DNA of 64,000 nt from an uncultured Lysobacter sp. (GCA_964587315.1 CAZPLW010000001.1:55374-119373), one strand, 5' to 3'. Counted from the first letter of the stretch, positions 4,244 to 55,066 are shown. The notes: a model not told the origin generated them from the letters alone. Translations and numbers: made by a program.

Positions 4244-5259
4244 GCGCCCTGGCGAAAGCCGATCCGCAGCGCCTTCTCGCCCTCGTGGGTGGCAACTGGA
4301 CCACGCAGGCCATCGGCGCGGCCGTGCAGCTGGGCATCGTGGACCAGCTCGCGAAGAGGCCGCGGCGCGCCGCGGAACTCGCGAAGCTCACCGGAAGCGA
4401 CCCCGACGCCCTCGCGCGCCTGCTGCGCTCGCTCGTGTCGATCGACATCTGCGCCGAGGAGGAAGGTCGCCACCGCCTCACGGCCACGGGTGGGCTCCTT
4501 CGCGAGGATGCGGCGGGCAGCATCCGCTGGTGGGCGCTGTGGTGCTGCGGCACCCAGTGGACGCTCTGGGCCGATCTCGCCGAGAGCGTGCGCACGGGTC
4601 GCAGCTTCCGCGCGCGGCACGGCGGCAAGCCGGGCTATGCGCACCTGGAGCGGGATGCCGAGTCGGCGCTCCTTTTCAACCGGGCGATGGCGGGTCTCAC
4701 GCAGCGCGTGGGCCGGGAGGTGGCGCGCGTGGCGAATTGGCGCGGAGTGAAGCGCGTCGTGGACGTGGGCGGCGGACACGGCGAGCTGCTCGTGGCCCTG
4801 CTCGCGGCAAGGCCTTCGCTCGAGGGGGTCATCCTCGACCTGCCCCACGCCGCGAAAGGCGCCACCGCGCGCCTGAAGGCCGAGGGCCTCGCGAAGCGCG
4901 GCCGCTTCATCGCGGGCAGCTTCTTCGAGTCGCTGCCCGAGGGAGCCGACGCCTATCTCCTCAAGAGCATCCTGCACAACTGGGACGACGCGAAATCGCT
5001 CGCGATCCTGAAGCAGGTGCGCGCCGCGATGGCGCCGACGGGGCGCGTGGTGCTCGTCGAGCGCGTGCTGCCCGAACGGCCTCGCGGCGGGAAGCGGGAC
5101 AACGCCATCGTTCGAAGCGATCTCAACATGCTCGTGAGCCTGGGCGGGCGCGAGCGCACGCGGCGGGAGTTCTCAGCGCTGCTCGCGAAGGCCGGCTTCG
5201 GCGCGCCGACCGTGAAGGCGACCACAACCGACTACAGCGTCATCGAAGCGAGTCGTTGA
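4240..5259 (+). CDS. Class I SAM-dependent O-methyltransferase (Methyltransf_2 / dimerisation-domain type)
   Basis: VVDVGGGHGELLVALL SAM motif, ADAYLLKSILHNWDD, and an N-terminal winged-helix dimerisation domain. The ATGA overlap with tctC-like indicates translational coupling. Confidence 0.85.
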   Translation: MSALAKADPQRLLALVGGNWTTQAIGAAVQLGIVDQLAKRPRRAAELAKLTGSDPDALARLLRSLVSIDICAEEEGRHRLTATGGLLREDAAGSIRWWALWCCGTQWTLWADLAESVRTGRSFRARHGGKPGYAHLERDAESALLFNRAMAGLTQRVGREVARVANWRGVKRVVDVGGGHGELLVALLAARPSLEGVILDLPHAAKGATARLKAEGLAKRGRFIAGSFFESLPEGADAYLLKSILHNWDDAKSLAILKQVRAAMAPTGRVVLVERVLPERPRGGKRDNAIVRSDLNMLVSLGGRERTRREFSALLAKAGFGAPTVKATTTDYSVIEASR

Positions 5260-5262
5260 AGG

Positions 5263-5378
5263 TTGAAGGGGACGCACGCCTTCAACCGAGGTGAAGGGGA
5301 CGGAGGGATTTCCGCAACACCTTGTTGTGAAAATCCCTCCGTCCCCTTCAGAAGCGATGAAGGCGTGCGTCCCCTTCA
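5263..5378. repeat. Nested-palindrome intergenic element, copy 1 (A-B-A')
   Basis: TTGAAGGGGACGCACGCCTTCAA .. TGAAGGGGACGGAGGGATTTCCGCAACACCTTGTTGTGAAAATCCCTCCGTCCCCTTCA .. TGAAGGCGTGCGTCCCCTTCA. It fills the gap between convergent stops at 5259 and 5384. Confidence 0.9.
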
Positions 5379-5383
5379 GGAGG

Positions 5384-6217
5384 TCAGGGGGTGAAGCGGA
5401 AGATGGTGACCCTGTGCTTGCCGCCCGCCTCGCGCTCGGCTTTCGTCGCGCGGATGATGCCGGCGATCGTCCCGCTATCGCCCGAGCGGTCCCACGCGAC
5501 GCCCTGGCCGCGGATGTTCATCGGGATCGCGTCGGCCAGCTCCAGCACCGAGCCCGCCTTGGGGAAGCGGATGCGATAGAGCTCGGCGGGGTCGTGGCCC
5601 GTGAGGTAGAGGTTGCCGTCCGGGCCCCACGAGCCGCCGGAGTTGCTCATGTCCTCGAACTTGTCGAGCAGCACCTTGGGCAGCGTCCACATCTGCGTCG
5701 TCTGGAAATCCTTCGTCATCTTCACCACGACCGTGTTCACCTTGTGGCCGTAGGGCGTCTTGTTGGGGCCGATGAGGCGATCGTAATTGGCGAAGCCCAT
5801 CCACCAGTGGCCGTCCTTCCAGTCCACCCAGGTGAGCGAGCCGTAGCGGATGCCGAAGCTGTGCGAGCCCACGTGCTCCATCGTCGCGGCGTCGAAAATC
5901 TCGAGCGAGCTCGTCATGGGCCAGTTCGGCCAGTTGGAGTGCGCGCAGTAGATCTTCCCGTCCATCACCATCGCGCTGTCCAGGTGGATGATGGGGCCGT
6001 CCTTCGGGCCTTCCCACTTCTTCACGAGCTTGCCCGTCTTGCGTTCGTACTTGGCGATGGCGCGGTCGTCGACGGCGTAGAAGTGGTCCTTGTCGATGCC
6101 CACGCCCTGGTTGGCCTCGGGGATGGGGAATTCGGCCACCTGCTCGAGTTTCGGCGCGGCCAGGGCATTCGTGACGCACAGCAGGGCGCCGAGAATGGCG
6201 CCGGCGATTCTTCTCAT
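5384..6217 (-). CDS. Secreted hypothetical protein (beta-propeller-like), unknown function
   Basis: The start MRRIAGAILGALLCVTNALAAP is a signal peptide. The frame shows coherent coding composition. The longer ORF upstream of 6217 is Arg/Gly/Ala-rich shadow sequence. Confidence 0.7.
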   Translation of the reverse strand: MRRIAGAILGALLCVTNALAAPKLEQVAEFPIPEANQGVGIDKDHFYAVDDRAIAKYERKTGKLVKKWEGPKDGPIIHLDSAMVMDGKIYCAHSNWPNWPMTSSLEIFDAATMEHVGSHSFGIRYGSLTWVDWKDGHWWMGFANYDRLIGPNKTPYGHKVNTVVVKMTKDFQTTQMWTLPKVLLDKFEDMSNSGGSWGPDGNLYLTGHDPAELYRIRFPKAGSVLELADAIPMNIRGQGVAWDRSGDSGTIAGIIRATKAEREAGGKHRVTIFRFTP

Positions 6218-6427
6218 CGTGTCGTACTCCTCCAGGGGGTTCGGGCGAGACGCTACACCATCCGCGTGAATCCTGCGCGAAGCGGTTCGCGTCGAGCGCG
6301 GGCATCGCGGCCGGACGGGAAACTCAGCGATCCCTGACAGCGCGATCGCCCGCGTGAAAAGTACCGCGACGGGGCCCCGGGGCGGGAGTAAGCTGCCCTC
6401 CCTGCTCGACGACACCGGGAGGCTTCC

Positions 6428-8026
6428 ATGAAACGGCAATCCACGATCGTCCTCGTCACCGCCGCCGCCCTGCTCCTCGCGGGATCCGCGCGGGCCCACG
6501 AAGGGGAGGCGCCTTCCGGGCGCCTGGGCAAGGTCTCCTTCGCCAACTCCTGCAGCGAGAAGACCAAGCCCAAGCTCGAGCGCGGCGTCGCCATGCTGCA
6601 CTCCTTCTGGTACACCGCCGCCGAGAAGACCTTCGACGAGATCCTCGCCTCGGACCCGCAGTGCGCCGTCGCGGCGTGGGGCCTCGCGTCCATCCTCATG
6701 AACAACCCGCTCGCCGGCGCCGGCGCGTCGCCCGCCGCCGCGAAGAAGGCGAGCGCCGCCCTCGAGAAGGCCCGCGAGGTGCGCGCGGGCACGCTGCGCG
6801 AGCGCGACTACATCGACGCCGTCTCGGCCTACTACGAGGACTACGCCAACCGCGGCGAGAAGGCGCGGCAGGTCGCGCGCTCGGCCGCCTACGCGAAGCT
6901 CGCGGCGCGCTACCCCGAGGACGACGAGGCGCAGATCTTCCATGCGCTCTACCTCGCCGCGACGCAGTCGCAGGCGGACCAGACGTACGCGGCCTACCTG
7001 GGCGCCGCCGCGATCCTGGAGGGGCAGTTCAAGAAGCACCCCGACCACCCGGGCGTCGCGCACTACCTCATCCACAGCTACGACGCGCCGCCCATCGCCG
7101 CCAAGGGCGTGCCCGCGGCCAAGCGCTACGCCGGCATCGCGCCCGACGCGCCGCACGCGCTGCACATGCCCTCGCACATCTTCACGCGCGTGGGCTCGTG
7201 GGAGGAATCCGTCGACACCAACCGCCGCTCGATGGAGGCCGCGCGCCGCGGCGGCGAGCCCGACGAGGCGTACCACGCCGTCGACTACATGGTCTACGCG
7301 TACCTGCAGCTCGGGCGCGATGCGGATGCCGGCCGGATGTGGAACGAGGTCCTCACGGTCTCGGGTTCCAGCCCGGCGCGGTTCACCACCCCGTATGCCG
7401 CGGCCGCGATGCCGGCGCGCCTCGCCCTCGAGCGCGGCGACTGGAAGGCCGCGAGCCAGCTCGCCGTGACCCCGACGACGTACGCGTTCTGCGAGGCGAT
7501 CACGCACTACGCGAAGGCGATCGGCGGCGCGCGGAGCGGCGACCTCGCCACGGCCCGCGCGGCCTTCGACACCCTCGGCGCGCTGCACAAGAAGCTCGAC
7601 GCGGCGCGCAACAACTACTGGGCCACGGAGGTCGAGATCCAGCGCCTGGCGGCCGCCGGCTGGATCGCGTTCGCGGAGAGCAAGCCCGAGGAGGCCGTGA
7701 AGCTCATGCGCGCCGCCGCCGACCTCGAGGACCGCAACGAGAAGCACATCGTCACGCCGGGGCGCGTCATCCCGGCGCGGGAACTGCTGGGCGACATGCT
7801 GATGGAGTTGAAGCAGCCGAAGCTCGCGCTCGCGGAATACCAGGCTTCGCAGCAACGCGAGCCCAACCGCTTCCGCGGCCTCTACGGCGCGGCGGTGGCG
7901 GCCGAGGCGTCCGGCGACAAGGCGCTCGCGGCGAAGTACTTCGCGCAGGTCGCCGAGCAGACGAAGCGAAGCGACGGCAAGCGGCCCGAGATCGCGCGCG
8001 CGCGGATGGTGGTCGCCTCCCGATGA
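6428..8026 (+). CDS. Secreted TPR-like hypothetical protein
   Basis: Signal peptide MKRQSTIVLVTAAALLLAGSARA, followed by helical repeat-like sequence throughout. Confidence 0.7.
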   Translation: MKRQSTIVLVTAAALLLAGSARAHEGEAPSGRLGKVSFANSCSEKTKPKLERGVAMLHSFWYTAAEKTFDEILASDPQCAVAAWGLASILMNNPLAGAGASPAAAKKASAALEKAREVRAGTLRERDYIDAVSAYYEDYANRGEKARQVARSAAYAKLAARYPEDDEAQIFHALYLAATQSQADQTYAAYLGAAAILEGQFKKHPDHPGVAHYLIHSYDAPPIAAKGVPAAKRYAGIAPDAPHALHMPSHIFTRVGSWEESVDTNRRSMEAARRGGEPDEAYHAVDYMVYAYLQLGRDADAGRMWNEVLTVSGSSPARFTTPYAAAAMPARLALERGDWKAASQLAVTPTTYAFCEAITHYAKAIGGARSGDLATARAAFDTLGALHKKLDAARNNYWATEVEIQRLAAAGWIAFAESKPEEAVKLMRAAADLEDRNEKHIVTPGRVIPARELLGDMLMELKQPKLALAEYQASQQREPNRFRGLYGAAVAAEASGDKALAAKYFAQVAEQTKRSDGKRPEIARARMVVASR

Positions 8027-8481
8027 GGATCGGCGGGCTCGCGCTCGCGCTGGCGCTCGCGGGCATCCCCGCGGGCGCCCTCGCCGAGCCGTACGAGTCC
8101 AACCCGACGGCGGCCGAGCGCGACGAGGACTACGCGGCCGGCAAGAAGGCGCTCGAGAAGAAGGACTGGGCCGAAGCGGTGAAGCGCTTCACGGTCGCCG
8201 CGAAGCGCGACCCCGACAGCGCGGACCTGCAGAACTACCTTGGGTATTCGAACCGCAAGCTCCGGCAGTTCGACGCCGCGTTCCGCCACTACAAGCGGGC
8301 GCTCGAGCTCGACCCGCGCCACCGCGGCGCGCACGAGTACATCGGCGAGGCCTACCTCGAGACGAACGACCTCGCGGGCGCCGAGCGCCACCTCGCGGCG
8401 CTTCGCGGCATCTGCCTGCTGCCGTGCGAGGAGCTCACGGACCTCGAGAAGGCGGTGGCGCAGTTCAAGGCGGGGAAATAG
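8023..8481 (+). CDS. Secreted tetratricopeptide-repeat protein
   Basis: ATGA overlap with the upstream gene and a signal peptide. TPR-like WAEAVKRFTVAAKRDPDSADLQNYLGYSNRKLRQFDAAFRHYKRALELDP. Confidence 0.75.
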   Translation: MRIGGLALALALAGIPAGALAEPYESNPTAAERDEDYAAGKKALEKKDWAEAVKRFTVAAKRDPDSADLQNYLGYSNRKLRQFDAAFRHYKRALELDPRHRGAHEYIGEAYLETNDLAGAERHLAALRGICLLPCEELTDLEKAVAQFKAGK

Positions 8482-8497
8482 CCCGCCCGGTCCCGCT

Positions 8498-10471
8498 TCA
8501 GATCAACACGTTCACGACCGCGTTGCCGATCCCCACGAGCGCCGAGCCGGAGATGAGGCCCGCGCAGATGGGCTCGCAGCCTTCCACCCAGATGTCGTGA
8601 CCGCGTGTGCCGCGCTCCTTGTTCATGCGCCCGGCCCACCAGAAGATCATCGCGCCCACCCACATGGCGAAGGTGGCCTCCGGCGGCAGCACCACGCCCA
8701 GGCCGATGGAGACGGCCGAGAGCGGGAAGCGGCCCTTGGTCTTGATCTTCACGATCTCGATCGCCATGGCGGCCACCGCGGCGAAGGCCATCGAGATCAC
8801 GGCCGAGGTGGGCAGGCTCTGCAGGCCCTTGGTGATGATCTCCGCCACGCCCTTCCACTGCAGCGCCGCGGGCATCGCGAACTGCTCCGACACGATGGTC
8901 GCGGCCGAGCGCACGCCGTTCGCGTCCGGGGGCAGGAAGAGCAGGTAGAAGAGCGGCACGCAGGCGAGCGAGCCCGCGAAGATGCCGATGACGTGACCCA
9001 CGGCCTGCTGGCGGGGCTTCGCGCCCAGCATGTAGCCCGGCTTGATGTCGGAGAGCAGGTTCGCGGCGTTCGCGGCGATCTCCGCGGTCATGCCCGCCGG
9101 AATCAGGTTGTTGGCAGGGTTCGTGCGATCCAGCGCGCCCATGGAGAACTGCGTGATCTTCGAAAGCGCGCCGGTCGGGGTCCACGAGGTGAGCGCCATG
9201 GAGTTGGTGCAGATGATCGTGAGCACGAAGATGAGCGGCAGCGAGATGGCGGCCATGTAGACCGGCACGCCGAAGAACGCGTGCGTCACCCAGATGCCCA
9301 GCACGCTGAAGAGCGGCACGCCCAGCGCCGAGATCCACAGGGGGAACTCGATGTGCGCGAGGACGTCCGCGCCTTCCTTCTTCTTGCCGCCCAGGGACTT
9401 GAAGGCGCTCACGAAGAGCTCCGGCCGCGCGAGCAGGCTCGTGAGCGAACCCACCACCATCATCGTGACGCCCCACCAGAGCGACCACTGGTTCACGATC
9501 TCCACGCGCGAGATGGGGACGGTGGCGCCCGTGGGGCCGATGCGCGGGGCGATGTCGCCCAGCTGGATCATCATCGGCGCGAGCACGACGAAGTTGATGA
9601 AGGCGCCCAGCAGGCAGCTGGTCGCCACCGCGATGCCCATGAGACCGCCCACGCCGAGCATGGCGGCATCGAGCGTGAGGCGAAGGCCGAGCTGGCGGAT
9701 GTCCGTGCCCAGGATCGAGGGGATCCAGCCGGTCTTGCCCGCGAAGGCGTAGTAGTAGCTGTCCAGGCGCTCGTGGAAGACCCAAGCCTCCTTCAGGCCC
9801 ATCCACTTGTCCATGGCGAGGATCTTGATCTGCAGCAGCTTCATCCAGCCGTCGCTGATGATGAGCTGGTAGACGCCCGTGCCCACCGCCACCCACGCGA
9901 GGAGCTTCGCCTTGAAGACGCCGGCCGCCGCGTTGCCCGTGTAGAGCGCGTCCAGCACCACGCCGCAGGCACGCCCCTCGGGGAAGGGCATCTGCTCCTC
10001 GTTGATGAAGCGGCGCTTGAGCGGGAAGGCGAGCAGCACGCCGATCATCGACACGACGCTCATCCACAGGATCATCTGCCACCACGGGATGAGCTTCCCG
10101 GTGACCAGCATGTAGGCCGAGAGGCTCGAGATCATGGGCGCCACCATGTAGCCGGCGGCCGTCGCGATGGACTGCGTGCAGTTGTTCTCGAGGATCGTGA
10201 AGTCGGAGGCGATGCCGGTGGAGGCGAAGATGCGGAAGAGCGCGAAGGCGAGGATGACGGAGGTGAGGCCCACGCCGATGGTGATGCCCGTCTTGCCGCC
10301 GATGTAGAGCGCCGTGGCGGAGAGGATCCCCCCCAGGAAGAAGCCGGTGAGGCCCGAGCGGATGGTGAGCTGCGGCATGTCGCCGCGGAAGAGGTTCTCG
10401 AGCCACCAGCGGTCCTTCTGCTCGCGGGACCAGTCGCGGACCTGCTCATCGGTCAGGTGTTGCAGCGCCAT
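8498..10471 (-). CDS. OPT family oligopeptide transporter
   Basis: 657 aa polytopic membrane protein. TIRSGLTGFFLGGILSATALYIGGKTG, PFPEGRACG and IKPGYMLGAKPRQQ are typical of OPT/EspB-type transporters. Confidence 0.88.
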   Translation of the reverse strand: MALQHLTDEQVRDWSREQKDRWWLENLFRGDMPQLTIRSGLTGFFLGGILSATALYIGGKTGITIGVGLTSVILAFALFRIFASTGIASDFTILENNCTQSIATAAGYMVAPMISSLSAYMLVTGKLIPWWQMILWMSVVSMIGVLLAFPLKRRFINEEQMPFPEGRACGVVLDALYTGNAAAGVFKAKLLAWVAVGTGVYQLIISDGWMKLLQIKILAMDKWMGLKEAWVFHERLDSYYYAFAGKTGWIPSILGTDIRQLGLRLTLDAAMLGVGGLMGIAVATSCLLGAFINFVVLAPMMIQLGDIAPRIGPTGATVPISRVEIVNQWSLWWGVTMMVVGSLTSLLARPELFVSAFKSLGGKKKEGADVLAHIEFPLWISALGVPLFSVLGIWVTHAFFGVPVYMAAISLPLIFVLTIICTNSMALTSWTPTGALSKITQFSMGALDRTNPANNLIPAGMTAEIAANAANLLSDIKPGYMLGAKPRQQAVGHVIGIFAGSLACVPLFYLLFLPPDANGVRSAATIVSEQFAMPAALQWKGVAEIITKGLQSLPTSAVISMAFAAVAAMAIEIVKIKTKGRFPLSAVSIGLGVVLPPEATFAMWVGAMIFWWAGRMNKERGTRGHDIWVEGCEPICAGLISGSALVGIGNAVVNVLI

Positions 10472-10576
10472 GGGGGATTTCTTCTCTCGTGGGGAAGGGG
10501 GGGGCGGAGGGAGGGCCGTGTGGGCCGGCGCCAATTGTGACAGAGGCATGGACGCGGGATAAGGGCCGCGGCCGCG

Positions 10577-11491
10577 ATGGGCGGTAAAATTCATCCCATC
10601 GTGCCCGCCAAGCCCTCCCGCCCCCCGAAGACCCGCCTCGAGATGCCGAACCCGTTCCGGCACGAGCGGGGCGTCGTGCGCATGATCGAGCCGCCGGACG
10701 CCGATCGCGGGGACCTCGCCCGGCGCATCGTGGCCGGCACCTACGGCAAGCCCTTCGTGATCGACGACGGGGTGATGCGCGAGCTCTACTTCAAGCGCGA
10801 GATCGTGCAGAGCGGCATGCGCCTGGCCGATCCCTGGGCGCTCGACTTCAGCTACACGCGGCTCGCGATGGCGTTCCTGCTCTTCAACCCGGACCCGCGC
10901 AGGATCCTGCTGCTGGGCCTGGGCGGCGGGTCGCTCGCCAAGTTCTGCCACAGGCACCTGCCTCGGGCCGATCTCACGACGGTGGAGATCGACGAGGACG
11001 TGATCGCGCTTCGCGACGAGTTCCTCGTGCCGCCGGACGGGCCGGGCTTCCACGTGGTGCACGACGACGCCGCGCGGTTCGTGGCGCGCGAGGACGGCTT
11101 CGACGCCATCGTGCTCGACTGCTTCGATCCCGAGGGCTACAGCCCGTCGGTGATGACGCGCGAGTTCTTCCAGGACGCGAGGGACGCGCTCTCGAAGAAG
11201 GGCGTGCTCGTCTCGAACCTGGTGGGGAAGAAGGAGGAGCGGCTGGCGCAGCTCGACCTCATCCGCGCCGCCTTCGGCGACAACATGGCGCTGATGCCCG
11301 ACAAGGAGGACGGCAACCTCGTCGTCTTCGTCTTCCGCGACCCGAACTTCGAGCCGCGCTGGCGCTGGATGGCCGGCGAGGCACCCGCGATGAAGGCCCG
11401 CTTCGGCCTCGACTTTCCCCGCTTCGCCCAGAAGCTCGAGAGGAGCCGCAAGCTCCGCTACCTCGAGCGCACCCTGGGCGAGGCCGCCTGA
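10577..11491 (+). CDS. Spermidine synthase-like class I methyltransferase-fold protein (start uncertain)
   Basis: ILLLGLGGGSLAKF ... TVEIDEDVIALRDEF ... FDAIVLDCFDPEG matches the spermine/spermidine synthase fold. In-frame ATGs at 10643 and 10682 are alternative starts. Confidence 0.7.
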   Translation: MGGKIHPIVPAKPSRPPKTRLEMPNPFRHERGVVRMIEPPDADRGDLARRIVAGTYGKPFVIDDGVMRELYFKREIVQSGMRLADPWALDFSYTRLAMAFLLFNPDPRRILLLGLGGGSLAKFCHRHLPRADLTTVEIDEDVIALRDEFLVPPDGPGFHVVHDDAARFVAREDGFDAIVLDCFDPEGYSPSVMTREFFQDARDALSKKGVLVSNLVGKKEERLAQLDLIRAAFGDNMALMPDKEDGNLVVFVFRDPNFEPRWRWMAGEAPAMKARFGLDFPRFAQKLERSRKLRYLERTLGEAA

Positions 11492-11506
11492 ACGCGGAGG
11501 ATCCCC

Positions 11507-11902
11507 ATGGCCTTGGACCTGCAGAAGGAAACGCTGCTGACGACGCTGGGCATCGAGGTGGTGGAGGCGACGAAGGACCGCGTCGTCGCCCGCATGCCGG
11601 TGGGGCCCCGCGTGCACCAGCCCTTCGGCTTGCTGCACGGCGGCGCCTCGCTCTCGCTCGCCGAGACGGTGGTGTCGATCGGCGCCTGGCACAACATCGA
11701 TCGCGAGAAGGAGTTCGCCGTGGGGATCGAGATCAACGCGAACCACGTGCGCGCCGTGCGCGACGGCGCCGTCACCGCGACCGCCACGCCCATCCACGTG
11801 GGCCGCCGCACGCAGGTGTGGGAGGCCCGGCTCGTGGACGACGACGGCAAGCTCGTCTGCATCTGCCGCTGCACGCTGGGCACCATGCCCCTCTCCCCCT
11901 GA
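11507..11902 (+). CDS. PaaI/YbdB family hotdog-fold thioesterase
   Basis: LGIEVVEATKDRVVARMPV..HQPFGLLHGGASLSLAETV..NANHVRAV..ATPIHVGRRTQVWEARL matches the PaaI thioesterase pattern. Confidence 0.85.
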   Translation: MALDLQKETLLTTLGIEVVEATKDRVVARMPVGPRVHQPFGLLHGGASLSLAETVVSIGAWHNIDREKEFAVGIEINANHVRAVRDGAVTATATPIHVGRRTQVWEARLVDDDGKLVCICRCTLGTMPLSP

Positions 11903-12014
11903 AGGGGACGCACGCCTTCAGCGCCTCTGAAGGGGACGGAGCGGTTTTCACAACAGTGTGTTGCGGAAATCCCTCCGTCCCCTTCACCTCGCGTGAAGGC
12001 GTGCGTCCCCTTCA
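11900..12014. repeat. Nested-palindrome intergenic element, copy 2
   Basis: Same A-B-A' architecture. Its first A unit begins with the thioesterase TGA stop codon. It ends 6 bp from the convergent stop at 12020. Confidence 0.9.
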
Positions 12015-12019
12015 TTCCT

Positions 12020-13669: not shown

Positions 13670-13757
13670 GGGGACTCCCGGCGTCGGCAGGTGCCCGTAG
13701 GATGCGGCGGCCGACCCGTCCGGATGTTTCCGTTTGTCGCCACCAGTGACGGGTCGA

Positions 13758-13909
13758 TTGAAGGGGACGCACGCCTTCAAATCGGGTGAAGGGGACGGAG
13801 ACCCTCCAAAGGGGACGCAAACATTCACGTCACCTGAATGTGTCTGTCCCCTTTATGGGTCGAAAGCCTCCGTCCCCTTCAGCGCCAGTGAAGGCGTGCG
13901 TCCCCTTCA
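13758..13909. repeat. Nested-palindrome intergenic element, copy 3 (variant with an extra inner palindrome)
   Basis: A .. B-left .. AAAGGGGACGCAAACATTCA-N7-TGAATGTGTCTGTCCCCTTT .. B-right .. A'. It ends 6 bp from the tamB stop. Confidence 0.9.
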
Positions 13910-13914
13910 GGGGG

Positions 13915-16900: not shown

Positions 16901-17847
16901 GAGGCGACGGGCACCTGGTTGCGGTCGAGCGGCCCCGCGGCCGTGTTCACGATCTTCACCGGGCCGGCGAGCAGCAGGCCGTCCGCGGGCGCGAGGTTCG
17001 CCTCCACCGCGAGCTTCGTCTGCGGCGCGTTCGCGAAGGCCGCGAGGTCGAGCCCCGAGAGCTTCACCAGGAGGGCGCGCAGCGGCGTCGCCTCGAAGGG
17101 GGCGATGCGCGCAACGCCGCCGCCCTCGAGCCCGCCTTCCGTCCCCGTGAACGCCGCCTCGAGGAGCGCGAGCGGCCCCTTCGCCGCCAGCGTGATGCCG
17201 TACTTGCGCTCGCCGCGCAGGCCCTCCAGCGCGCCCTTGGCATCCAGGGTGAAGGGGCGCGACGCGCCGAGGGTGCCGCTCGCCTGCGCGAGTCCGAAAG
17301 GCGTCCTGGCGCGCGCGTCGCCCACGATCCACGCCGTGGGGTCGCCGGCCAGCTTCACGGAGAGATCCTGCAGCTCCAGCGGCTTCGCCTCGCCGCGCGT
17401 GACGAGCACCAGGCGATCGAGCCCCGCCTGCGCCACGTGGATGGCGAAGGGCGGCGAGAGCGAGAGCGGCTCCTTCGCGGGTTCGTCCGACGGCTCGCTC
17501 TCGACCTCGAGCCGCGCCGCGTGCAGCGTCGTGACGTCCAGCTGTCCGCGCAGCATGCTCCAGGGCTGCCAGTCGAGCGTGAGGCGCGAGATCGTCACGC
17601 GCGTCTTCCCCGTGGTCAGCTCGAGCGACTCGACCGTGACCGGCCCGGCGAGGCTCCCCTGCACGCCGGTGACCGTCCCGCCCGTGAGCGAGAGCGCGCG
17701 CTCCAGCACGAGGCGCGCGCCCGATTCGCTGAAGGCGAGCCACGAGGCGGCGCCCACCACGACGGCGAGCGCGAGGACGAGGCCGCCGGAGCACCAGGCG
17801 AGCGCGCGCTTCAGGCGCCAGGGCGGGCGGGGAGCTTTCTCGTCCAT
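13915..17847 (-). CDS. tamB: Translocation and assembly module subunit TamB (DUF490)
   Basis: 1310 aa with an N-terminal membrane anchor, a long beta-rich body and a C-terminal DUF490-like end (LSYQQGL..VAWQVTKSFQLILRAGYQTGLDGVYRFS). It lies directly downstream of tamA. Confidence 0.85.
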   Translation of the reverse strand: MDEKAPRPPWRLKRALAWCSGGLVLALAVVVGAASWLAFSESGARLVLERALSLTGGTVTGVQGSLAGPVTVESLELTTGKTRVTISRLTLDWQPWSMLRGQLDVTTLHAARLEVESEPSDEPAKEPLSLSPPFAIHVAQAGLDRLVLVTRGEAKPLELQDLSVKLAGDPTAWIVGDARARTPFGLAQASGTLGASRPFTLDAKGALEGLRGERKYGITLAAKGPLALLEAAFTGTEGGLEGGGVARIAPFEATPLRALLVKLSGLDLAAFANAPQTKLAVEANLAPADGLLLAGPVKIVNTAAGPLDRNQVPVASLAARLAIAKDGGAKAQGVEAAFAGGGSAKGELAWAKGKLDAALDVRGLDLLAWHTKLRPTALAGPLRAEATGDAQSFTLDLADPRFTIAGAARFAKDTLEVERMRIARADSAIEAAGTLGLKGRRAFALEGRLDRVNPAKFAKVPEGEISGGLKASGNLGDARSIQAVVEIAKSRFAGLALDGRVDVTADDRHLGRIEANLAMGETRASANGAFGRAGDALSVKFASPDLAPLGKAFGIPVAGHVEGDALVEGTFALPYGRAAFKAGSLVLPGGMRVAALDAKLALGAAEDAPLTGDATLTGLREDRAKEALVAKAVLSLRGTRAAHDLRLDASLDERSQVRLLLSGGVTGVASGQPDWRGRLEVFESTGRYPILLAAPATLAVAATRVELGETRLTGDWGNLDLVTTRWTPAAFEAKGTARGIAVRTVTRLAGLRQAPSSNLVVGGAWDLRAAETIEGFAELKRESGDVRVGEARQALGLETLFLRVDAAGGRVRAKGDIRGAQVGKWLAEGEASIRRADGGWEVSPVAPVAGRLEVDVPDLAWTAGWLGPDAQAGGRLAGRVSLSGTQREPTWEGRIDGTGLVIRDPASGFEGKEGTLAIAFKDHELRLERLAFDSPWRPNADAAKALAGVKRPDRGSISAEGALNFATRKGEIRVTSTAYPVTQLASRFLAVSGEAKAALDGTTINLTGDVRADAGWFGIPASAAPSVADDVIVERGEPAADATPSERIRLDVRVALGDHTHFTGRGLTTRLGGSLRLAGDVGTGLRATGSIRALYGTYDAYGQKLAIERGALNFQGPLDNPGLNVLALRKGLPVEAGVEILGNVARPRVRLVSQPDVPDPEKLAWLVLGRGQGQMAASDAAILVSAAGSILGRDDPNSGRLLGGLGLTADDIRLGQDSGSLLGTMPQSTVAGKTGSTAATQDMLTVGKRLSDNIYLSYQQGLADAEGSMRVAWQVTKSFQLILRAGYQTGLDGVYRFSLDDAPIKLRPTP

Positions 17848-17850
17848 GGG

Positions 17851-19611
17851 CTAGAACGCCACCGAGACGGAGAAGACCGCCCGGACCTTCTTGTCGCGAT
17901 CGGCGTAGGCGACGTCGAGCGCGAGGGGACCGGCCGGGGTGCGCCAGCGCACGCCCACGCCGTAGCCCAGGTTCGCGCCGAGCGTGTCGCGCGTGTCGGC
18001 CGCATCGCCGGCGTCGAGGAACGCCGCCCCGCCCCACGCCGGCGTGAACCAGCGCACGTACTCGACGGTGCCGGTGGCGAGGTAACGGCCGCCCACGGTG
18101 GCGTCGCCTTCCTTCACGCCCAGGCTCTGGTACTTGTAGCCGCGCACCGAGCGCGTGCCGCCCGCGCGGTAGAGGAAGTCCTCCGGCACGCCCTCGCGGC
18201 TCACCGCGAAGGTCTTGCCCAGCTCGGCGCGGACGATGAACTGGTCCTTCGGCGTCGGCGTGAACCAGTGCTGGTACTGCGCGTAGGCCTTCACGAAATC
18301 CTGGTCCGACAGGAACGCCTTCGAGCCGATGGCCCCCTGCACTTGCAGCACCCCGCCCGTCTTCGGATCGAGCACGTCGTCCACGAAGCGCCAGGTGACG
18401 GTCGCGTTGGGCGCGAGGGCGCGCCGCAGGGACTGCTCGCCGCCGTCGGGCCGCGCCTGCTCGATCTGGTAGCTCACGCCCAGGCGGAAGTCGAACTGGC
18501 CCTTGAGGAACTGACGGTAGCCCGCGACGGCCACGCGCCGCGTGTCGAGGCCTTCGATCTTCGTGTGCTCGCCGAGGATACCCACGCTGTCCTTGGTGGC
18601 GAGGGAGCCCACGATGGGCGCGGCGATGGCCCCGGGAGGCAGGTAGAAATCCGCATAGCCGATCTGGCGCTTCGTGTCCGCCTGCAGCGCCGATTGCATG
18701 TCGTAGCCGATGCCGAAGGCGTTGCGGTAGCGCAGCGACACCTCGCCGCGCGCCCCCGAATCGGTGCCGTAGCCGGCGGAGAGGCCGACGTCGGCCACCG
18801 GGCGCTCGATGAGCGTGACGCGCACGGGCACGTGGTCCGGCTTGGCGGGATCGCGCTCGATCTCCACGGTGACGCCCGCGAAATACGGCGTGTTCTGGAG
18901 CGTGCGCTGCAGGTCGAGCAGGCGGTCGCTGCGATAGGGTTCGCCCGGGTCCACGTCGACGAGGCGATCGACCACCTGGCGCGGGTACCTCGCGAGCCCG
19001 GCGATCTCCACCTCGCCCAGCGAGAAGGCCGGGCCGCTGTCGAGGACGATGGCGAGCCTCGCCTTCGCGTTCGGCGCGTCGACGCGCGCCTCGCTCGAGA
19101 CGACGGCGCCCGCCGCGTAGTCGTCGGCGGTGAGCGCCTCCAGCAATCGCGCCTTCGCCTCTTCCCAGTCCGCCGTGCGGAAGGGCCGGCCCTCGACGAG
19201 CGTCCACGACGCCTTCAGCGCGTCGCGGCGCGACTGGCGGAACTCGCCCTCGCCCGCCACGTCGCCCTTGAACGCGATCGAGACGGCGGAGACCACGGTG
19301 CGCGGTCCCGTCTCGACCGTCACGCGGATGGGCTGCACGTCCTCGTCGATGTCGACCTTCGCGTCGAACCAGCCCTCGGCCGCGGCGATCTCGGGCACGC
19401 GCCGGCGCACCTCGCGGATCCAGCGGCGAAGGACCAGGCGGTCCTGCTTCGCCTCGGGCGGCGGGCGCCTCAGGTGCTTCTCGAAATGGACCTTGAGCTC
19501 CAGCGGCGCCTCCCAGGCGACGGACAGCGGGCCATCGGCCTCGTCCTCCGCGTGCGCCGTCGCCGCGAGGAACGTGAGGAGCGCGGCAGCGAGGGCGGCG
19601 TGGAGCTTCAC
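17851..19611 (-). CDS. tamA: Outer-membrane Omp85-family protein TamA
   Basis: Signal peptide, POTRA-like N-terminal part and a C-terminal bacterial surface antigen barrel (RSVRGYKYQSLG ... GVGVRWRTPAGPLALDVAY). GTG start immediately after the fbp TAG. Confidence 0.85.
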   Translation of the reverse strand: MKLHAALAAALLTFLAATAHAEDEADGPLSVAWEAPLELKVHFEKHLRRPPPEAKQDRLVLRRWIREVRRRVPEIAAAEGWFDAKVDIDEDVQPIRVTVETGPRTVVSAVSIAFKGDVAGEGEFRQSRRDALKASWTLVEGRPFRTADWEEAKARLLEALTADDYAAGAVVSSEARVDAPNAKARLAIVLDSGPAFSLGEVEIAGLARYPRQVVDRLVDVDPGEPYRSDRLLDLQRTLQNTPYFAGVTVEIERDPAKPDHVPVRVTLIERPVADVGLSAGYGTDSGARGEVSLRYRNAFGIGYDMQSALQADTKRQIGYADFYLPPGAIAAPIVGSLATKDSVGILGEHTKIEGLDTRRVAVAGYRQFLKGQFDFRLGVSYQIEQARPDGGEQSLRRALAPNATVTWRFVDDVLDPKTGGVLQVQGAIGSKAFLSDQDFVKAYAQYQHWFTPTPKDQFIVRAELGKTFAVSREGVPEDFLYRAGGTRSVRGYKYQSLGVKEGDATVGGRYLATGTVEYVRWFTPAWGGAAFLDAGDAADTRDTLGANLGYGVGVRWRTPAGPLALDVAYADRDKKVRAVFSVSVAF

Positions 19612-20613
19612 CTAGCCCGCGTGATAGCCCGTGGCGCGCTCGACTTCATTCCTGGAGCCGAGGATGACCGCGATGCGCTGGTGGAGGGCCGTGGGCTGCA
19701 CGTCGAGGATCCTCTCGCGGCCCGTGGTGGCGGCCCCGCCCGCCTGCTCGACGATCATCGCCATCGGATTCGCCTCGTACATGAGGCGAAGGCGCCCGGG
19801 CTTGCCGGGTTCCTTGTTGTCCCTCGGGTAGAGGAACACGCCGCCGCGCGAGAGGATGCGGTAGACGTCCGCCACCATCGAGGCGACCCAGCGCATGTTG
19901 AAGTCCGCGCCGCGCGGGCCGGCCTTGCCCGCGATGAGCTCGCCGACGTAGCGCTGCACGGGCGGCTCCCAGTGGCGCTGGTTGGACATGTTGATGGCGA
20001 ATTCCCTCGTGTCCTCCGGGATGCGGATGTCCTCGCGCGTGAGGCGGAAGGAGCCGACCTCGCGGTCCAGCGTGAACGAGTGCACGCCCTGGCCCATCGT
20101 GAGCACGAGCACCGTGGAGGGGCCGTAGACCGCGAAGCCCGCGCACACCTGCTGGGTGCCGGGCTGGAGGAACGCTTCCTCGCTCGTGGGGTCGACGCCC
20201 TCGGGACAACGCAGCACCGAGAAGATGGTGCCCACGGAGACGTTCACGTCGATGTTGGAGGAGCCGTCCAGCGGATCGAAGAGCAGGAGGAACTCGCCCT
20301 TGGGGAAGCGGCGCGGGATGCCCTGCGGGTGCTCCATCTCCTCCGAGGCCATGGCGGCGAGGTGGCCGCCCCATTCGTTGGCCTCGAGGAGGATCCCGTT
20401 CGCGATGACGTCGAGCTTCTGCTGCGCCTCTCCCCGCAAGTTGCCGCTGCCGGCGTCGCCCAGCACGCCCGCGAGGTCGCCCTTGCCCACGGCGATGGAG
20501 ATGGCCTTCACGGCGCGGGAGACGACCTCGACCAGCAGGCGCAGGTCGGAGGGGATGGCCTGCTTCTGCCACTGTTCGTCGATGAGGAAGCGGGAGAGGG
20601 AGACGGAGCGCAT
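19612..20613 (-). CDS. fbp: Class 1 fructose-1,6-bisphosphatase
   Basis: [46 protein letters not shown] and GGVFLYP are canonical FBPase class 1 motifs. Confidence 0.92.
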
Positions 20614-20680
20614 GGTCTTGTGGCAGTCGGGGCGGACAGATGGATTTCGCGCGGCAGGGCCGCAACCCGCAATTATCCGG

Positions 20681-20708
20681 GAAAAGCGCCCGGCTCCCTA
20701 AACCGGGC
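20681..20708 (-). terminator. Intrinsic terminator candidate after the EamA-family gene
   Basis: On the minus strand GCCCGG-UUUAGGGAG-CCGGGC is followed by GCUUUUC, 8 nt after the stop. Confidence 0.4.
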
Positions 20709-20716
20709 ACCGTCCC

Positions 20717-21580
20717 CTATTTTCGGGCGAGCGAGGCGGCGGAGGCGATCACGAGCGCCCCGCCCGCGAGCTGCGCCGGGGTGAGGCTCTCGCCCAGCAC
20801 GAACCACGCGAGGGCGGCCGTGAAGACGGGCTCGAAGGTGGAGACCACGGAGGCCACGGACGGTCCCACGCGCTTGAGCCCCGCGAAGAAGGCGAGGATC
20901 GCGACCACGCCGCCCACGATGCCCAGGGCTGCGACGGCCGCCCAGCCCCACCAGGTGCCGGGAAGGCGCGTGTCGATGAAGAGCGACGCGATGCCGAGCG
21001 TCGTCGCCGCCGAGAGACAGATCACCGTCGAGCTGGCGAGGGCGTCCGTGCCCGCCAGTTCGCGCGACCCCACGAGGATGTACACCGAGTAGATGCCCGC
21101 CGCGGCGAGCCCCAGGCCGATTCCCATGGGCGTGCCGCTGCCGCCGCCCAGCATGAGGGCGAGGCCCGCGAAGCTCACGGCGAGGAGGGCGAGCTTCGTG
21201 CCGGTGAGCTTCTCGTGCAGGAAGGTGGCCGAGAGCAGCACGACGATCGTCGGGTAGACGTACAGCAGGAGCGCGACGAGGCCCGAGGACGCGTACTGCA
21301 GCGCGGTGAAGAAGCACGCGGCCTGGCCCACGTAGCCGATGCCGCCCATGGCGATCGCGAAATGCAACGGCCGCCCGCGGGGAAACCTCTTCCCCGTCGC
21401 GACGAGCAGGATCGCGAGGAGGATGCCGGCGATCGCGAAGCGTCCCGCGAGCAGCCCCGGCACGTTCGCGCCCGAAGCGAACGCCCCGCGCGCGATGACC
21501 GCCATCGCCCCGAACGCGCAGGCCGAAAGCAGGACCAGCAGGATGCCCGGGGTGGATGGGTGCTGCTGAAGGGGACGCAC
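20717..21580 (-). CDS. DMT superfamily (EamA-like) transporter; start lies inside repeat copy 4
   Basis: Ten hydrophobic segments and duplicated EamA-like halves. The only in-frame starts upstream of TM1 (GILLVLLSACAFG) are GTG 21580 and ATG 21640, both inside the repeat element. Confidence 0.75.
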   Translation of the reverse strand: MRPLQQHPSTPGILLVLLSACAFGAMAVIARGAFASGANVPGLLAGRFAIAGILLAILLVATGKRFPRGRPLHFAIAMGGIGYVGQAACFFTALQYASSGLVALLLYVYPTIVVLLSATFLHEKLTGTKLALLAVSFAGLALMLGGGSGTPMGIGLGLAAAGIYSVYILVGSRELAGTDALASSTVICLSAATTLGIASLFIDTRLPGTWWGWAAVAALGIVGGVVAILAFFAGLKRVGPSVASVVSTFEPVFTAALAWFVLGESLTPAQLAGGALVIASAASLARK

Positions 21581-21709
21581 GCCTTCAGCCCTTCTGAAGG
21601 GGACGCACGCCTTCACGGAAACTGAAGGGGACGGAGGCATTTACGCCACAGCGTGTTGCGGAAATCGCTCCGTCCCCTTCATCGAGCCTGAAGGCGTGCG
21701 TCCCCTTCA
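21567..21709. repeat. Nested-palindrome intergenic element, copy 4 (A-A-B-A')
   Basis: Two tandem A units (21567-21587 and 21595-21615), B hairpin 21623-21681 and A' 21689-21709. It ends 7 bp from the ubiJ stop. Confidence 0.9.
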
Positions 21710-21715
21710 ATGGGT

Positions 21716-22300
21716 TCAACGGCGCTCGAGCTGCTCGATGCGCTTCTCGAGCCGCTCCACGGCGTCGCGCAGCAGGCTCACCTCGTCGACGAAACCGGCC
21801 ACCTTCACGCGGGAGGCGATGAGGGGCGATTCCTCGGTGAAGTACTCGGCGGCGGAGGCGGCGAGGCGCTCGGCGGCGTCCTTGCCCCAGCCAGCGGCGG
21901 CGGTGGCGGCGCCGACCGCGCGATGGGCCGCGGCATCGCCCACCACCTTCGAGAGGTCCTCTTCCACGTCCCACTTCAGGTTCTTTGCGAGGAAGGCGAT
22001 CTCCGCGGCGAATTCGGCATCGCCCGTCATCTGCACGTCGCGGAAGGCCGACTCGTCGCGCGCGGCGAGGCGGGGCAGCAGGAACGGCGAGAGCTTCACC
22101 TCCAGATCCTTCGTCGCACTCTCCACGGCAGGCAGCACCTCGCCCGTGGTCTGCACGGTGAAGGTGGCGTCGAAGGGACCGACGTGGAAGACGGCGGTGC
22201 GCCCGGCGAACTTGCCCAGGCGCTCGCGGGAAAGCGGCGCCGCGCCCGTCAGCTTGTTGATGAAGCCGGCCGCGGCATCCGTGGGCGTCGGGCCGATCAC
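21716..22300 (-). CDS. ubiJ: Ubiquinone biosynthesis accessory factor UbiJ (SCP2 domain)
   Basis: Position directly after ubiE with a GTGA overlap. SCP2-like N-terminal part ([16 protein letters not shown]) and a C-terminal amphipathic helix ending [11 protein letters not shown]. Confidence 0.65.
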
Positions 22301-23034
22301 GGCTTGAATCCCCGGTGCAGCGCGACCACGCCCATGGTCAGGTTGTTGTAGTCCACGCGCACCAGGCCCGCGGCTTCCATCATGCCCTTGAGCGTCTCCT
22401 GGTCCGGGTGCATGCGGATGGACTCGGCCAGGTAGCGGTAGGCCGCCTCGTCCTTGGCGACGTGCTTGCCGATGAAGGGCAGCACGTTGAACGAGTAGAG
22501 GTCGTAGGGCTTCTCGAGCGGCTTCCACACCTTGCTGAACTCGAGCACCATCACGCGCCCGCCGGGCTTCGCCACGCGCGTCATCTCCGCGAGCGCCTTG
22601 TCCTTGTGCGTCATGTTGCGAAGGCCGAAGGCCACGGTGATGCAGTCGAAAGTGTCGTCGGGGAAGGGGAGCTTCTCGGCGTCGCAGATGGCGGGCGGGG
22701 CGAGCACGCCGCCGTCGATGGCCTTGTCGCGCCCCACGCGCAGCATGGCGCCGTTGATGTCCGTCATCACCACCTTGCCCGTGGGCCCGGCGATCTTCGC
22801 GAAGGCAAGGGCCAGGTCGCCGCTGCCGCTCGCGACATCCAGCACGGTGCTGCCCGCCTTCACGCCCGAGAGCGCGATGGCGAACCGCTTCCAGAGGCGG
22901 TGAAGCCCCATCGACATGAAGTCGTTCATCAGGTCGTAGTTACCCGCGACCGACGAGAAGACCTCGCCGACCTTGGCGGCCTTCTCGCCTTCCTTCACCT
23001 CCTGGAAGCCGAAATGGGTGGTCTTGTCGTTCAT
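22297..23034 (-). CDS. ubiE: Bifunctional demethylmenaquinone / 2-methoxy-6-polyprenyl-1,4-benzoquinol methyltransferase UbiE
   Basis: [69 protein letters not shown] is a canonical UbiE/MenG pattern. Confidence 0.92.
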
Positions 23035-23399
23035 TTGGGGTCCCGCGAGGCGCCGGCCTGCTCCAGGCGGGCGAGGTAGCTCTTCCAGCTCGATTCCTTC
23101 TTCTCGCCCAGCTCGTAGAGGTAATCCCACGAATAGAGGCCGGTGTCGTGCCCGTCGCTGAAGACGAGCTTCACCGCGTAGGCGCCCACGGGCTCGATCT
23201 CCTTGATCTCGACGTCGCGCTTGCCGACCTGCAGCACTTCCTGGCCCGGGCCGTGGCCGCGGACCTCGGCCGACGGGGAGTAGACGCGCAGGTACTCGCA
23301 GGACAGGCTGAAGCGCTGGCCGTCGTCGAAGGCGATCTCGAGGATGCGCGACTTCTGGTGCAGCTTGATCTCGGTGGGGCGGGGGGCGGCTGGGCTCAT
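23031..23399 (-). CDS. DUF971 (gamma-butyrobetaine hydroxylase-like N-terminal domain) protein
   Basis: [59 protein letters not shown] is typical DUF971. ATGA overlap with ubiE. Confidence 0.75.
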
Positions 23400-23451
23400 G
23401 GGCGTATCTTGGGGGAAGCCGGCATTTTCCCACGGACGGGGTCCTTCGGGG

Positions 23452-23469
23452 CTGTAACCCCCGTGTCAC
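23452..23469 (+). promoter_or_regulatory. Pho box candidate CTGTAAC-CCCC-GTGTCAC
   Basis: Two 7-bp direct repeats with a 4-bp spacer resemble the CTGTCAT-N4-CTGTCAC consensus. A TAACAT -10-like hexamer starts 10 bp downstream, ahead of phoB. Confidence 0.5.
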
Positions 23470-23523
23470 AGACGGACCGTAACATGCCCGAAACATCGAC
23501 TGCTTGAGCCACCCCAAGGTCCC

Positions 23524-24210
23524 ATGCCCGCCCAGATCCTCGTCGTCGAAGACGAGAGCGCCATCCAGGAACTCATCGCCCTCAACCTCGAGCAGGCAGG
23601 GCAGACGCCCATTCTCGCCGGCAGCGCGGAGGAGGCCTGGACGAAGATCCAGTCCGCCCTGCCGGACCTGGTGCTGCTCGACTGGATGCTGCCGGGCCAG
23701 AGCGGCATCGAGTTCGCGCGGTGCCTGAGGGCCGAGTCGCGCACGCGCCTGCTGCCCATCATCATGCTCACGGCGCGCGGGGAGGAGGAGGACAAGCTGC
23801 GGGGCCTGGACACCGGCGCCGACGACTTCATCACCAAGCCCTTCTCCACGAAGGAGCTGCAGGCGCGCATCAAGGCCGTCCTTCGCCGCCGGGCGCCGGA
23901 GATCACCGACGACGCCATCGAGTACCACGGGCTGAAGCTGGACCCGGCCTCGCACCGCATCACCGGCAAGGGGAAGGATCTCGCGATGGGCCCCACGGAG
24001 TTCCGCCTGCTGCATTTCTTCATGACCCACCCGGAACGCGTCTATTCGCGCACGCAGCTCCTGGACCACGTGTGGGGCGACCACGTGTTCATCGAGGAGC
24101 GGACGGTGGACGTGCACATCCGCCGCCTGCGCGCCGCGCTCGAGAAGTCCGGGCTGGAGACCTACATCCAGACCATCCGGGGCAGCGGGTACCGATTTTC
24201 CCGAGGGTAA
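23524..24210 (+). CDS. phoB: Phosphate regulon response regulator PhoB
   Basis: [109 protein letters not shown] matches PhoB closely. Confidence 0.92.
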
Positions 24211-24221
24211 GGGCTGGCTTC

Positions 24222-24364
24222 TGAAGGGGACGCACGCCTTCACCCATCCTGAAGGGGACGCACGCCTTCAGAAGCGGTGAAGGGGACGGAGGCAATTTTG
24301 CAACAGCGTGTTGCGCGATTCCCTCCGTCCCCTTCAAGCGAGTTGAAGGCGTGCGTCCCCTTCA
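24222..24364. repeat. Nested-palindrome intergenic element, copy 5 (A-A-B-A'), inside the phoB-phoR spacer
   Basis: A units at 24222-24242 and 24250-24270, B hairpin 24278-24336 and A' 24344-24364. Confidence 0.9.
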
Positions 24365-24401
24365 CGCCCTTCACGAAGGCGCGCGGCGCCTTTGACCGAT
24401 A

Positions 24402-55042: not shown

Positions 55043-55066
55043 GGTCTCCGTGTCCTGGGGTATGGG

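Follow-up and report, generated by a model that had tools for sequence, protein, structure and literature searches.

A probable family of REP/BIME-type nested palindromes at gene ends in an uncultured, high-GC betaproteobacterium

The window analyzed here is a stretch of 64,000 nucleotides (GCA_964587315.1 CAZPLW010000001.1:55374-119373) with a GC content of 69-73%. It carries betaproteobacterial housekeeping genes (TctC/Bug receptor, OPT transporter, TamA/TamB, fructose-1,6-bisphosphatase, UbiE, PhoB/PhoR, and PtsP), and we read the host as an uncultured, high-GC betaproteobacterium. Five arrays of palindromic repeats, numbered 1 to 5 in their order along the window, lie between these genes. 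A preliminary description had presented the arrays as five copies of one composite nested palindrome, A-B-A', that abut stop codons. Its coordinates were correct to within 1 nt; the starts of the first and third copies are 5264 and 13759, not 5263 and 13758.

The outer unit A (TGAAGGGGACGCACGCCTTCA, 21 nt) occurs in the window as 12 exact copies, seven on the plus strand and five as the exact reverse complement A', with no mismatch among them, as had been described. All 12 copies are intergenic and confined to the five arrays. No copy appeared in 100 dinucleotide-preserving shuffles, and beyond the arrays no near-copy with three or fewer mismatches was found across the 64 kb. The unit is composed of 6-nt inverted arms flanking a 9-nt core (TGAAGG-N9-CCTTCA), which in the window is GGACGCACG. 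The second module, B, is a 59-nt hairpin with the same head as unit A (TGAAGGGGACG). Its 14-nt arm (TGAAGGGGACGGAG) is present in 10 exact copies forming five inverted pairs, in agreement with the inner hairpin originally proposed. The core octamer held to be common to the units (AAGGGGAC) was found 24 times against 1.4 expected, each time within the arrays. A profile hidden Markov model of the 115-nt core (see below) detected no further site in the window at E<1 (nhmmer). The repeat pattern is thereby confirmed as real and far beyond chance.

Unit starts are spaced exactly 28 nt apart in every array, corresponding to a 21-nt unit and a 7-nt linker, and on this period the units occur direct or inverted, with the direct units preceding the inverted ones (A A B B' A'; A A A' A'). 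Arrays 1, 2, 4, and 5 share a 115-nt nested palindrome, A-linker-B (59 nt)-linker-A'. Array 1 (5264-5378) consists of A (5264-5284), the linker ACCGAGG, B (5292-5350), the linker GAAGCGA, and A' (5358-5378). Array 2 (11900-12014) is built from A (11900-11920), B (11928-11986), and A' (11994-12014), and array 1 is its inverted form, an inversion that had already been noticed for its central loop and that was supported by 91% complementarity and by the profile search. Arrays 4 and 5 possess one extra outer A in direct tandem, also as reported: array 4 (21567-21709) comprises A (21567-21587), A (21595-21615), B (21623-21681), and A' (21689-21709), and array 5 (24222-24364) comprises A (24222-24242), A (24250-24270), B (24278-24336), and A' (24344-24364). 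A decayed extra A' (CGAAGGCGCGCGGCGCCTTTGA) at 24374-24395 extends array 5 to position 24395. The single A-B-A' plan does not hold for array 3 (13759-13909), a 151-nt nested palindrome in which a diverged inverted doublet, C (13808-13827) and C' (13835-13855) with a 7-nt linker, is nested in the B loop; the B arms lie at 13787-13800 and 13868-13881, between A (13759-13779) and A' (13889-13909). The GCAACA-N3-TGTTGC mini-hairpin ascribed to the B loop is perfect in array 5 only; it is imperfect in arrays 1, 2, and 4 and missing from array 3.

On a gene map built on third-codon GC (GC3), all five arrays are extragenic and start 0-11 nt from a stop codon. Arrays 1 and 2 lie between convergent genes and take up nearly the whole gap. 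Array 1 starts 4 nt past the stop of an O-methyltransferase gene (5259) and ends 5 nt short of that of a cycloisomerase-like gene (5384). In array 2, unit A begins with the very TGA that ends a thioesterase gene (a gap of 0 nt), and the stop of a TPR/S41 peptidase gene (12020, minus strand) is 5 nt from the array. Array 3 lies 5 nt past the TamB stop (13915, minus strand), with its far side upstream of the S41 gene start, and array 4 lies 6 nt past the stop of a gene for a 194-aa protein (21716, minus strand), with its far side overlapping the predicted GTG start of an EamA gene (21580). Array 5 occupies the phoB-phoR spacer, 11 nt past the phoB TAA (24210); its decayed A' ends 6 nt, and its last intact unit 37 nt, ahead of the phoR start (24402). 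The claim that the copies abut stop codons is correct for both sides of arrays 1 and 2 and for one side of arrays 3, 4, and 5, whose far sides face gene starts. Part of this adjacency stems from the unit itself, which ends in TGA/TCA and in some cases supplies the stop. The arrays had also been said to be confined to the first 25 kb, and here 5 of 17 junctions facing a gene 3' end were occupied, compared with 0 of 35 beyond (Fisher p = 0.002, the split having been chosen post hoc). The clustering is real within the window, and its meaning is uncertain. Two ideas about gene ends were discarded. The notion that the 28-nt period puts TGA in all three frames is true only of arrays with three heads, and the 115-nt core leaves one frame open. 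A C-rich leader (CCCCCTGACC) was considered as a part of the element that gives Pro-stop to flanking genes, and the FRFTP-stop of the cycloisomerase-like gene turned out to be native in relatives without arrays.

Relatives were found by protein-guided retrieval, and all of them come from metagenome assemblies; sites 1 to 5 denote the positions of the five arrays and their orthologues. Logan short-read contigs (SRR13723393 and SRR13723394) with 99.9% identity to the window include arrays 4 and 5. Two further Logan contigs of this organism stop inside the B hairpin of array 2, as expected because repeats break assemblies. Two Betaproteobacteria metagenome-assembled genomes (MAGs; L013 and L014/L036) encode PhoR proteins 84-85% identical to that of the window. 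The unit TGAAGGGGACGCACACCTTCA, which differs by one core change, is present in L013, L014, L036, the ENA contig L038, and the JGI contig L032. The JGI contig L033 has TGAAGGTGACGGACACCTTCA, with the arms, the 21-nt length, and the 28-nt period unchanged, and L032 additionally has a variant with an 8-bp stem (TGGAGGGGACGCACCCCTTCA). The units of these relatives lie at intergenic sites orthologous to those of the window and likewise next to stop codons. In L039 and L042, whose cycloisomerase-like proteins are 93% and 91% identical to that of the window, no unit and one decayed unit were found, respectively. No TGAAGG-N9-CCTTCA unit was found in relatives with about 73% identity or less for the corresponding proteins. 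Among these more distant lineages, L019 and L021 display simple hairpins with a GAAGGGGACG stem at gene ends: AAAGGGGACGGTTCC..GGAACCGTCCCCTTT in L019 (708-742), in the gap from the TamB stop to a convergent one, and TTGAAGGGGACGTTACCCAATTGGGTAACGTCCCCTTCAA after ptsP in L021 (15660-15700). The B and C hairpins may have descended from such simple hairpins. In L039, the counterpart of the array 2 site (1130-1200) is occupied by an AT-richer perfect palindrome, GGGGTCAGGTTCAATTTTCCGCC...GGCGGAAAATTGAACCTGACCCC, with no TGAAGG units; the palindrome family at this junction differs from lineage to lineage.

The genes flanking the arrays (tamB, phoB/phoR, and the neighbors of the fructose-1,6-bisphosphatase gene) are core genes whose synteny is conserved across relatives. 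At site 5, units occur only in the window (A A B A') and in L013 and L014 (A A A' A'); the spacers of L017 and L019 are about 15-30 nt long without a unit, and that of L015 is short and also lacks one. The linker GGCAAGG is repeated at site 5 of L014. Site 4, between the EamA gene and the gene for the 194-aa protein, carries an array in the window and L014 but none in L013, L017, L019, and L021, and no target-site duplication was discernible in this comparison. The flank A[TC]GGGTTCAA, common to the window and L014, introduces a new TGA and shortens the 194-aa protein; site 4 is the only site at which such inserted sequence replaces the native gene end. Upstream of the conserved N-terminus, the EamA transporter has only one in-frame start codon, the GTG at 21580, which lies inside the first A of array 4. 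The L014 protein starts at an ordinary ATG (MRQPST...) outside its array, and array 4 may have replaced the native start. At the junction of the fructose-1,6-bisphosphatase and EamA genes, L014 has an intact A A A* array (6493-6580), L013 a decayed one (6460-6530), and the window only a possible 9-nt remnant (CCGTCCCCT, 20710-20721). At site 2, between the S41 and thioesterase genes, the window has the composite, L032 a single unit, L033 two units in direct orientation, and L038 one A and then a tandem of four A' whose linker, GGGGCGA, is identical; in all four, the thioesterase stop is the unit's own TGA. The array at site 2 of L038 shows growth by 28-nt tandem duplication. The orthologue of site 3 in L032, L033, and L038 holds two units. 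In the window, the TPR/S41 peptidase gene sits between arrays 2 and 3 (11900-13909). In L036 (JADJMI010000008.1; the L014 lineage), a single array (3843-3977) stands between the tamB and thioesterase stops, and this 1.65-kb gene is missing. Its loss in the L014 lineage is consistent with, and likely resulted from, a deletion by recombination between two arrays.

Comparison of units and linkers provided insight into how the arrays are copied. Site 1 of L038 holds an A-B-A' composite that is identical to array 1 at 103 of 115 positions in one orientation and at 12 of 14 linker positions when linker flips are allowed; the third-codon identity of the adjoining gene is 0.77. At position 15, all 12 units of the window have G, and every intact unit of L013, L014, L036, and L038 has A. 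This difference despite the common descent of site 1 shows that the units have been homogenized within each genome, changing in concert. We initially took the linkers for random (26-29% position-wise identity), with units inserting singly, which proved to be an artefact: flips and swaps reveal two linker types (GAAGCGN and NSCGAGG) common to arrays 1, 2, and 5 and the L038 composite. With flips, the linkers of these four composites match at 10-12 of 14 nt, compared with a null mean of 6.2 (P 0.01 to 0.0002). The sharing of linkers shows the 115-nt composite to be a copied entity. That the 28-nt module also behaves as an independent entity is evident from free-standing units, direct tandems, and A A A' A' arrays. 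Single 7-nt linkers, bounded by the CCTTCA/TGAAGG arms, seem to invert independently of one another. Inversion of hairpin loops is known in other genomes. The alignments thus far described show sites that are gained or lost between close relatives and arrays that have been remodeled by 28-nt tandem duplication, nesting, and minute inversions.

When folded as RNA, a check that the preliminary description had suggested, each array folds back on itself, on either strand, into one long hairpin with an energy between -91 and -108 kcal/mol (z between -10 and -13), in which the two linkers oppose each other as a mostly unpaired internal loop. The energy of array 2 folded as single-stranded DNA is -54 kcal/mol, and a lone unit A forms only a weak 6-bp hairpin (-5.7 kcal/mol, z = -3.4). 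Several structures defined by hairpins or repeats were considered and set aside. The arrays are not intrinsic (Rho-independent) terminators, in that the defining T tract is missing and a terminator scan gave no match at the arrays; nor are they integron attC sites, the ends being TGAAGG/CCTTCA and not the R''/R' core sites (RYYYAAC ... GTTRRRY), and the flanking genes being syntenic core genes, not mobile cassettes. A clustered regularly interspaced short palindromic repeat (CRISPR) reading was dropped on its defining features.

Database searches matched the arrays to no named family, as the preliminary description had also reported. Rfam gave no match at the gathering threshold and, at E<=1, only meaningless microRNA-type matches, and the sequence of the unit had no match in the literature. 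The exact 21-nt unit was absent from 185,579 species-representative genomes, from viral contigs, and from plasmids, and a peptide profile of the element's open frame (KGTHAF..EGDGG..SVPF..EGVRPLQ) retrieved nothing from 5.8 billion proteins. In metagenomes, the exact unit was matched 10 times (L001-L010, JGI contigs), as single units in unrelated, mostly low-GC settings. Eight of these matches represent one locus of 47-54% GC, flanked by A and T runs and overlapping the 3' end of an opposite-strand open reading frame (ORF); another lies inside a TonB-receptor coding sequence, and the last lies on a 64% GC contig (L002) beside a second hairpin (GAAGGGGAC; GAAGGGGACTGTCCCCTTC). Their number is somewhat above the roughly estimated chance expectation of about 0.2, and we treated them as chance or unrelated matches.

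The window contains some further features. A second long palindrome (1893-2163), unrelated to the arrays, fills the 311-nt gap between convergent ArsR/HTH_20 (1476-1862, plus strand) and LysR (2174-3160, minus strand) genes. Its 49-nt arms, one of which ends in AAGGGGATGCATCC, are 88% complementary and 173 nt apart, the interior is largely self-complementary, and the RNA fold of 1880-2175 reaches -194 kcal/mol (z = -11.4). The corresponding LysR/DUF808 junction in L038 holds a large unit array (14529-14760) instead. A two-gene block (DUF2950 and DUF3300) is duplicated at 36336-38521 and 54044-56140, on the same strand, about 17.8 kb apart, and with 76-93% DNA identity. A DUF3604 protein is split over the consecutive ORFs 32434-33708 (profile positions 175-591) and 33751-34365 (3-158), which may be due to a frameshift, a pseudogene, or an assembly error. 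A long ORF on the minus strand (58827-59711), in an 879-nt stretch that is empty on the GC3 gene map, contains a PIN domain (residues 161-275) and may be part of a toxin-antitoxin module.

Taken together, we consider it probable that the five arrays, with the mechanism proposed here, constitute a lineage-specific family of repetitive extragenic palindromes (REPs) of the type that forms bacterial interspersed mosaic elements (BIMEs). The preliminary description had seen REP/BIME-like behavior or that of a MITE (miniature inverted-repeat transposable element), and the relatives strengthen the REP/BIME part of that proposal through orthologous sites, lineage-specific cores, and filled and empty positions. 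The agent of spread and the cellular effect we infer as follows. Copying and homogenization would be carried out by a hairpin-specific single-strand DNA enzyme encoded elsewhere, of the REP-associated tyrosine transposase (RAYT)/IS200 type, by ectopic gene conversion, or by both. At mRNA 3' ends, transcription of the arrays would give hairpins of -91 to -108 kcal/mol, and because these are so stable they could serve as 3'-end barriers or as sites of double-strand RNA processing: the hairpins would block exonucleases or polymerase or be cut by double-strand-specific RNases, without acting as canonical intrinsic terminators. In this way, they may insulate convergent and adjacent genes, and the array in the phoB-phoR spacer may uncouple the expression of the two cistrons.

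Other explanations account for part of the same evidence. A classical MITE would be a 115-143-nt internally deleted insertion sequence with A and A' as its 21-nt terminal inverted repeats, and a DDE transposase encoded elsewhere would move it in trans. The size (115-151 nt), the perfect 21-nt terminal repeats, the copying of the composite as a whole with its linkers, the presence of both orientations, and the filled and empty sites among relatives would all suit such an element, but no target-site duplication is consistent at any of the ten array ends, the spacing is fixed at 28 nt, and neither the window nor the related sequence examined yielded a parent insertion sequence. Moreover, the supposed terminal repeat folds on itself and also occurs alone, in direct tandem (A A; four A'), and as A A A' A' without an internal segment. 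We therefore regard a MITE as decidedly unlikely. A BIME-like mosaic with a REPIN-like (REP doublet forming hairpin) 115-nt composite fits better, given the lack of a visible target-site duplication and the occurrence of the terminal repeats alone and in direct tandem. The units could, on the other hand, be sites for a host DNA-binding protein (a nucleoid-associated, gyrase- or IHF-like protein, or a dimeric regulator on TGAAGG-N9-CCTTCA) whose identity is kept by selection, not by mobility. Independent selection cannot account for the joint change of a core base in all units of a genome, and it leaves unexplained the neutral linkers common to whole composites and the location at gene 3' ends instead of promoters; these points make such an origin quite improbable despite the operator-like 6-N9-6 inverted arms, their constancy across lineages while the core drifts, and the regular phasing. 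REPs and BIMEs are known to bind IHF, gyrase, and Pol I (PMC2817692), and protein binding is compatible with the REP explanation rather than exclusive of it.

That each array arose in place as a terminator at its own gene end, with no copying between sites, we find highly improbable. Every array follows a stop codon, the hairpin foot contains TGA/TCA, and the distant relatives L019 and L021 carry their simple GAAGGGGACG-stem hairpins exactly at gene ends, yet 12 identical 21-mers with common linkers at unrelated loci cannot arise independently, no array has a T tract or a terminator-scan match, and one lies inside the phoB-phoR operon. A further alternative, which seems to us unlikely, is a self-organizing, phase-locked repeat driven not by a RAYT but by an undescribed hairpin-directed strand transfer or templated repair, in which 21-nt modules would be exchanged or corrected one at a time across the genome. 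The tracts involved, about 21-28 nt long, would be shorter than the homology usually required for RecA-mediated gene conversion. This alternative draws on the observations that the same core base appears switched in every unit while the linkers at an orthologous site are kept, and that 7-nt linkers seem to flip singly between 6-bp arms.

Several observations weigh against the REP/BIME interpretation that we prefer. No transposase, RAYT, or integrase domain is present among the approximately 58 predicted genes of the window, in line with the earlier remark that no such gene lies nearby, and tblastn with an approximate E. coli YafM query detected no RAYT in about 510 kb of related DNA, giving only short spurious matches. 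REPs number more than 100 per genome, and the figure available here is a local density of one array per 4-21 kb in five carrier stretches of at least 20 kb, which are fragments, not whole genomes. The two REP superfamilies described to date have an unpaired head, GTAG or CGTC (PMC3733652), that the unit does not possess, and the orientation of the units is not strictly alternating, unlike that in classical BIMEs. The spacers of array 4 fit neither common linker type, and those of array 3 are intermediate. As for the role at the RNA level, which we infer, no T tract follows the stem of any array, and none of the seven terminator-like sites that the scan predicted in 5001-25000 coincides with an array.

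The REP families described so far come mostly from Gamma- and Alphaproteobacteria. The present arrays add a cleanly structured REP/BIME-type family from a high-GC betaproteobacterial lineage known from metagenome assemblies alone. The family was previously uncatalogued; it is another example of a well-known kind of repeat and changes nothing in what is known of that kind. Its relatives offer an unusually readable record of array evolution, with different arrangements, concerted change, growth in 28-nt steps, minute inversions, decay, and one likely gene deletion. The most unusual aspect is concerted change at the level of the unit beside conserved linkers and 7-nt linkers that appear to flip singly. 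In practical terms, the arrays break short-read assemblies, supply stop codons, and separate phoB from phoR by a hairpin of about -100 kcal/mol, which is relevant to the annotation and interpretation of these MAGs.

Comparison with known systems helps to place the family. The arrays resemble MITEs such as the Correia elements in their length (100-160 nt), terminal inverted repeats, intergenic location, and occurrence in either orientation, but differ in that no target-site duplication is seen, the terminal repeats are also free-standing, and no parent insertion sequence is known. The betaproteobacterial neisserial intergenic mosaic elements (NIMEs) with their dRS3 repeats, which are a target of phage integration, are built on a similar plan (PMC1797815): the dRS3 unit is 20 bp long with 6-bp arms and a central 8 nt (ATTCCC-N8-GGGAAT, as against TGAAGG-N9-CCTTCA here), and its arrays occupy syntenic positions with repeat numbers that vary between genomes. 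However, dRS3 centers vary within a genome, whereas the present core is invariant within a genome, and dRS3 repeats flank RS elements of 50-150 bp (PMC1797815). We rejected membership in this family on the different arm sequence, the 9-nt center, and the 7-nt linkers. Similarly, the GTAG and CGTC REP superfamilies are small palindromes mostly downstream of genes and often form head-to-head or tail-to-tail dimers that can fold into larger hairpins, some with structured or conserved spacers; the CGTC families have no known dedicated transposase (PMC3733652). Membership in these was also rejected: the unit is TGAAGG...CCTTCA, with CGTC only internal in A', and it does not have their stem of 8-9 bp starting with A/T pairs, loop of 4-5 nt, and CCA tail (PMC3733652).

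REPs and BIMEs of Enterobacteria and Pseudomonas are short palindromic extragenic units with regular spacing and specific linkers in mosaic arrays, sited after coding regions, between convergent or co-directional genes; the unit is species-specific, array positions can be common to relatives, and the transcribed hairpins are very stable (PMC2817692). The present arrays share all of these properties, and unit A, a self-folding sequence of 21 nt, falls within the size of REPs (imperfect palindromes of 20-40 nt). They differ in the combination of a 21-nt unit, a self-stem of only 6 bp, a 9-nt core, 7-nt linkers, and no GTAG head (PMC2817692), in the direct tandem followed by inverted units in place of strict alternation, and in having no sequence similarity to any described REP. 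REPINs, whose associated RAYT groups have been described from Enterobacteria and Pseudomonas, are doublets in inverted orientation, each of which folds into one long hairpin and is copied whole (PMC3116915; 10.1101/2021.07.10.451892). Unlike REPINs, which consist of one doublet, the arrays have three nested layers (A, B, and C), no RAYT was found in the sequence examined, and all 12 sampled units equal the master sequence, compared with under half in the cited E. coli strain. The 115-nt composite nonetheless corresponds to two inverted REPs with a spacer that form one hairpin and are replicated as a unit, and, as in REPIN-RAYT systems, a master sequence dominates in each genome and persists vertically at orthologous sites. 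Gain, persistence, and decay, with a patchy distribution among close lineages such as L039 and L042, are likewise features of REPIN populations (10.1101/2021.07.10.451892). We favor the REP/BIME and REPIN-like interpretation because the properties of the arrays match these published descriptions of REP/BIME and REPIN populations (PMC2817692, PMC3733652, 10.1101/2021.07.10.451892).

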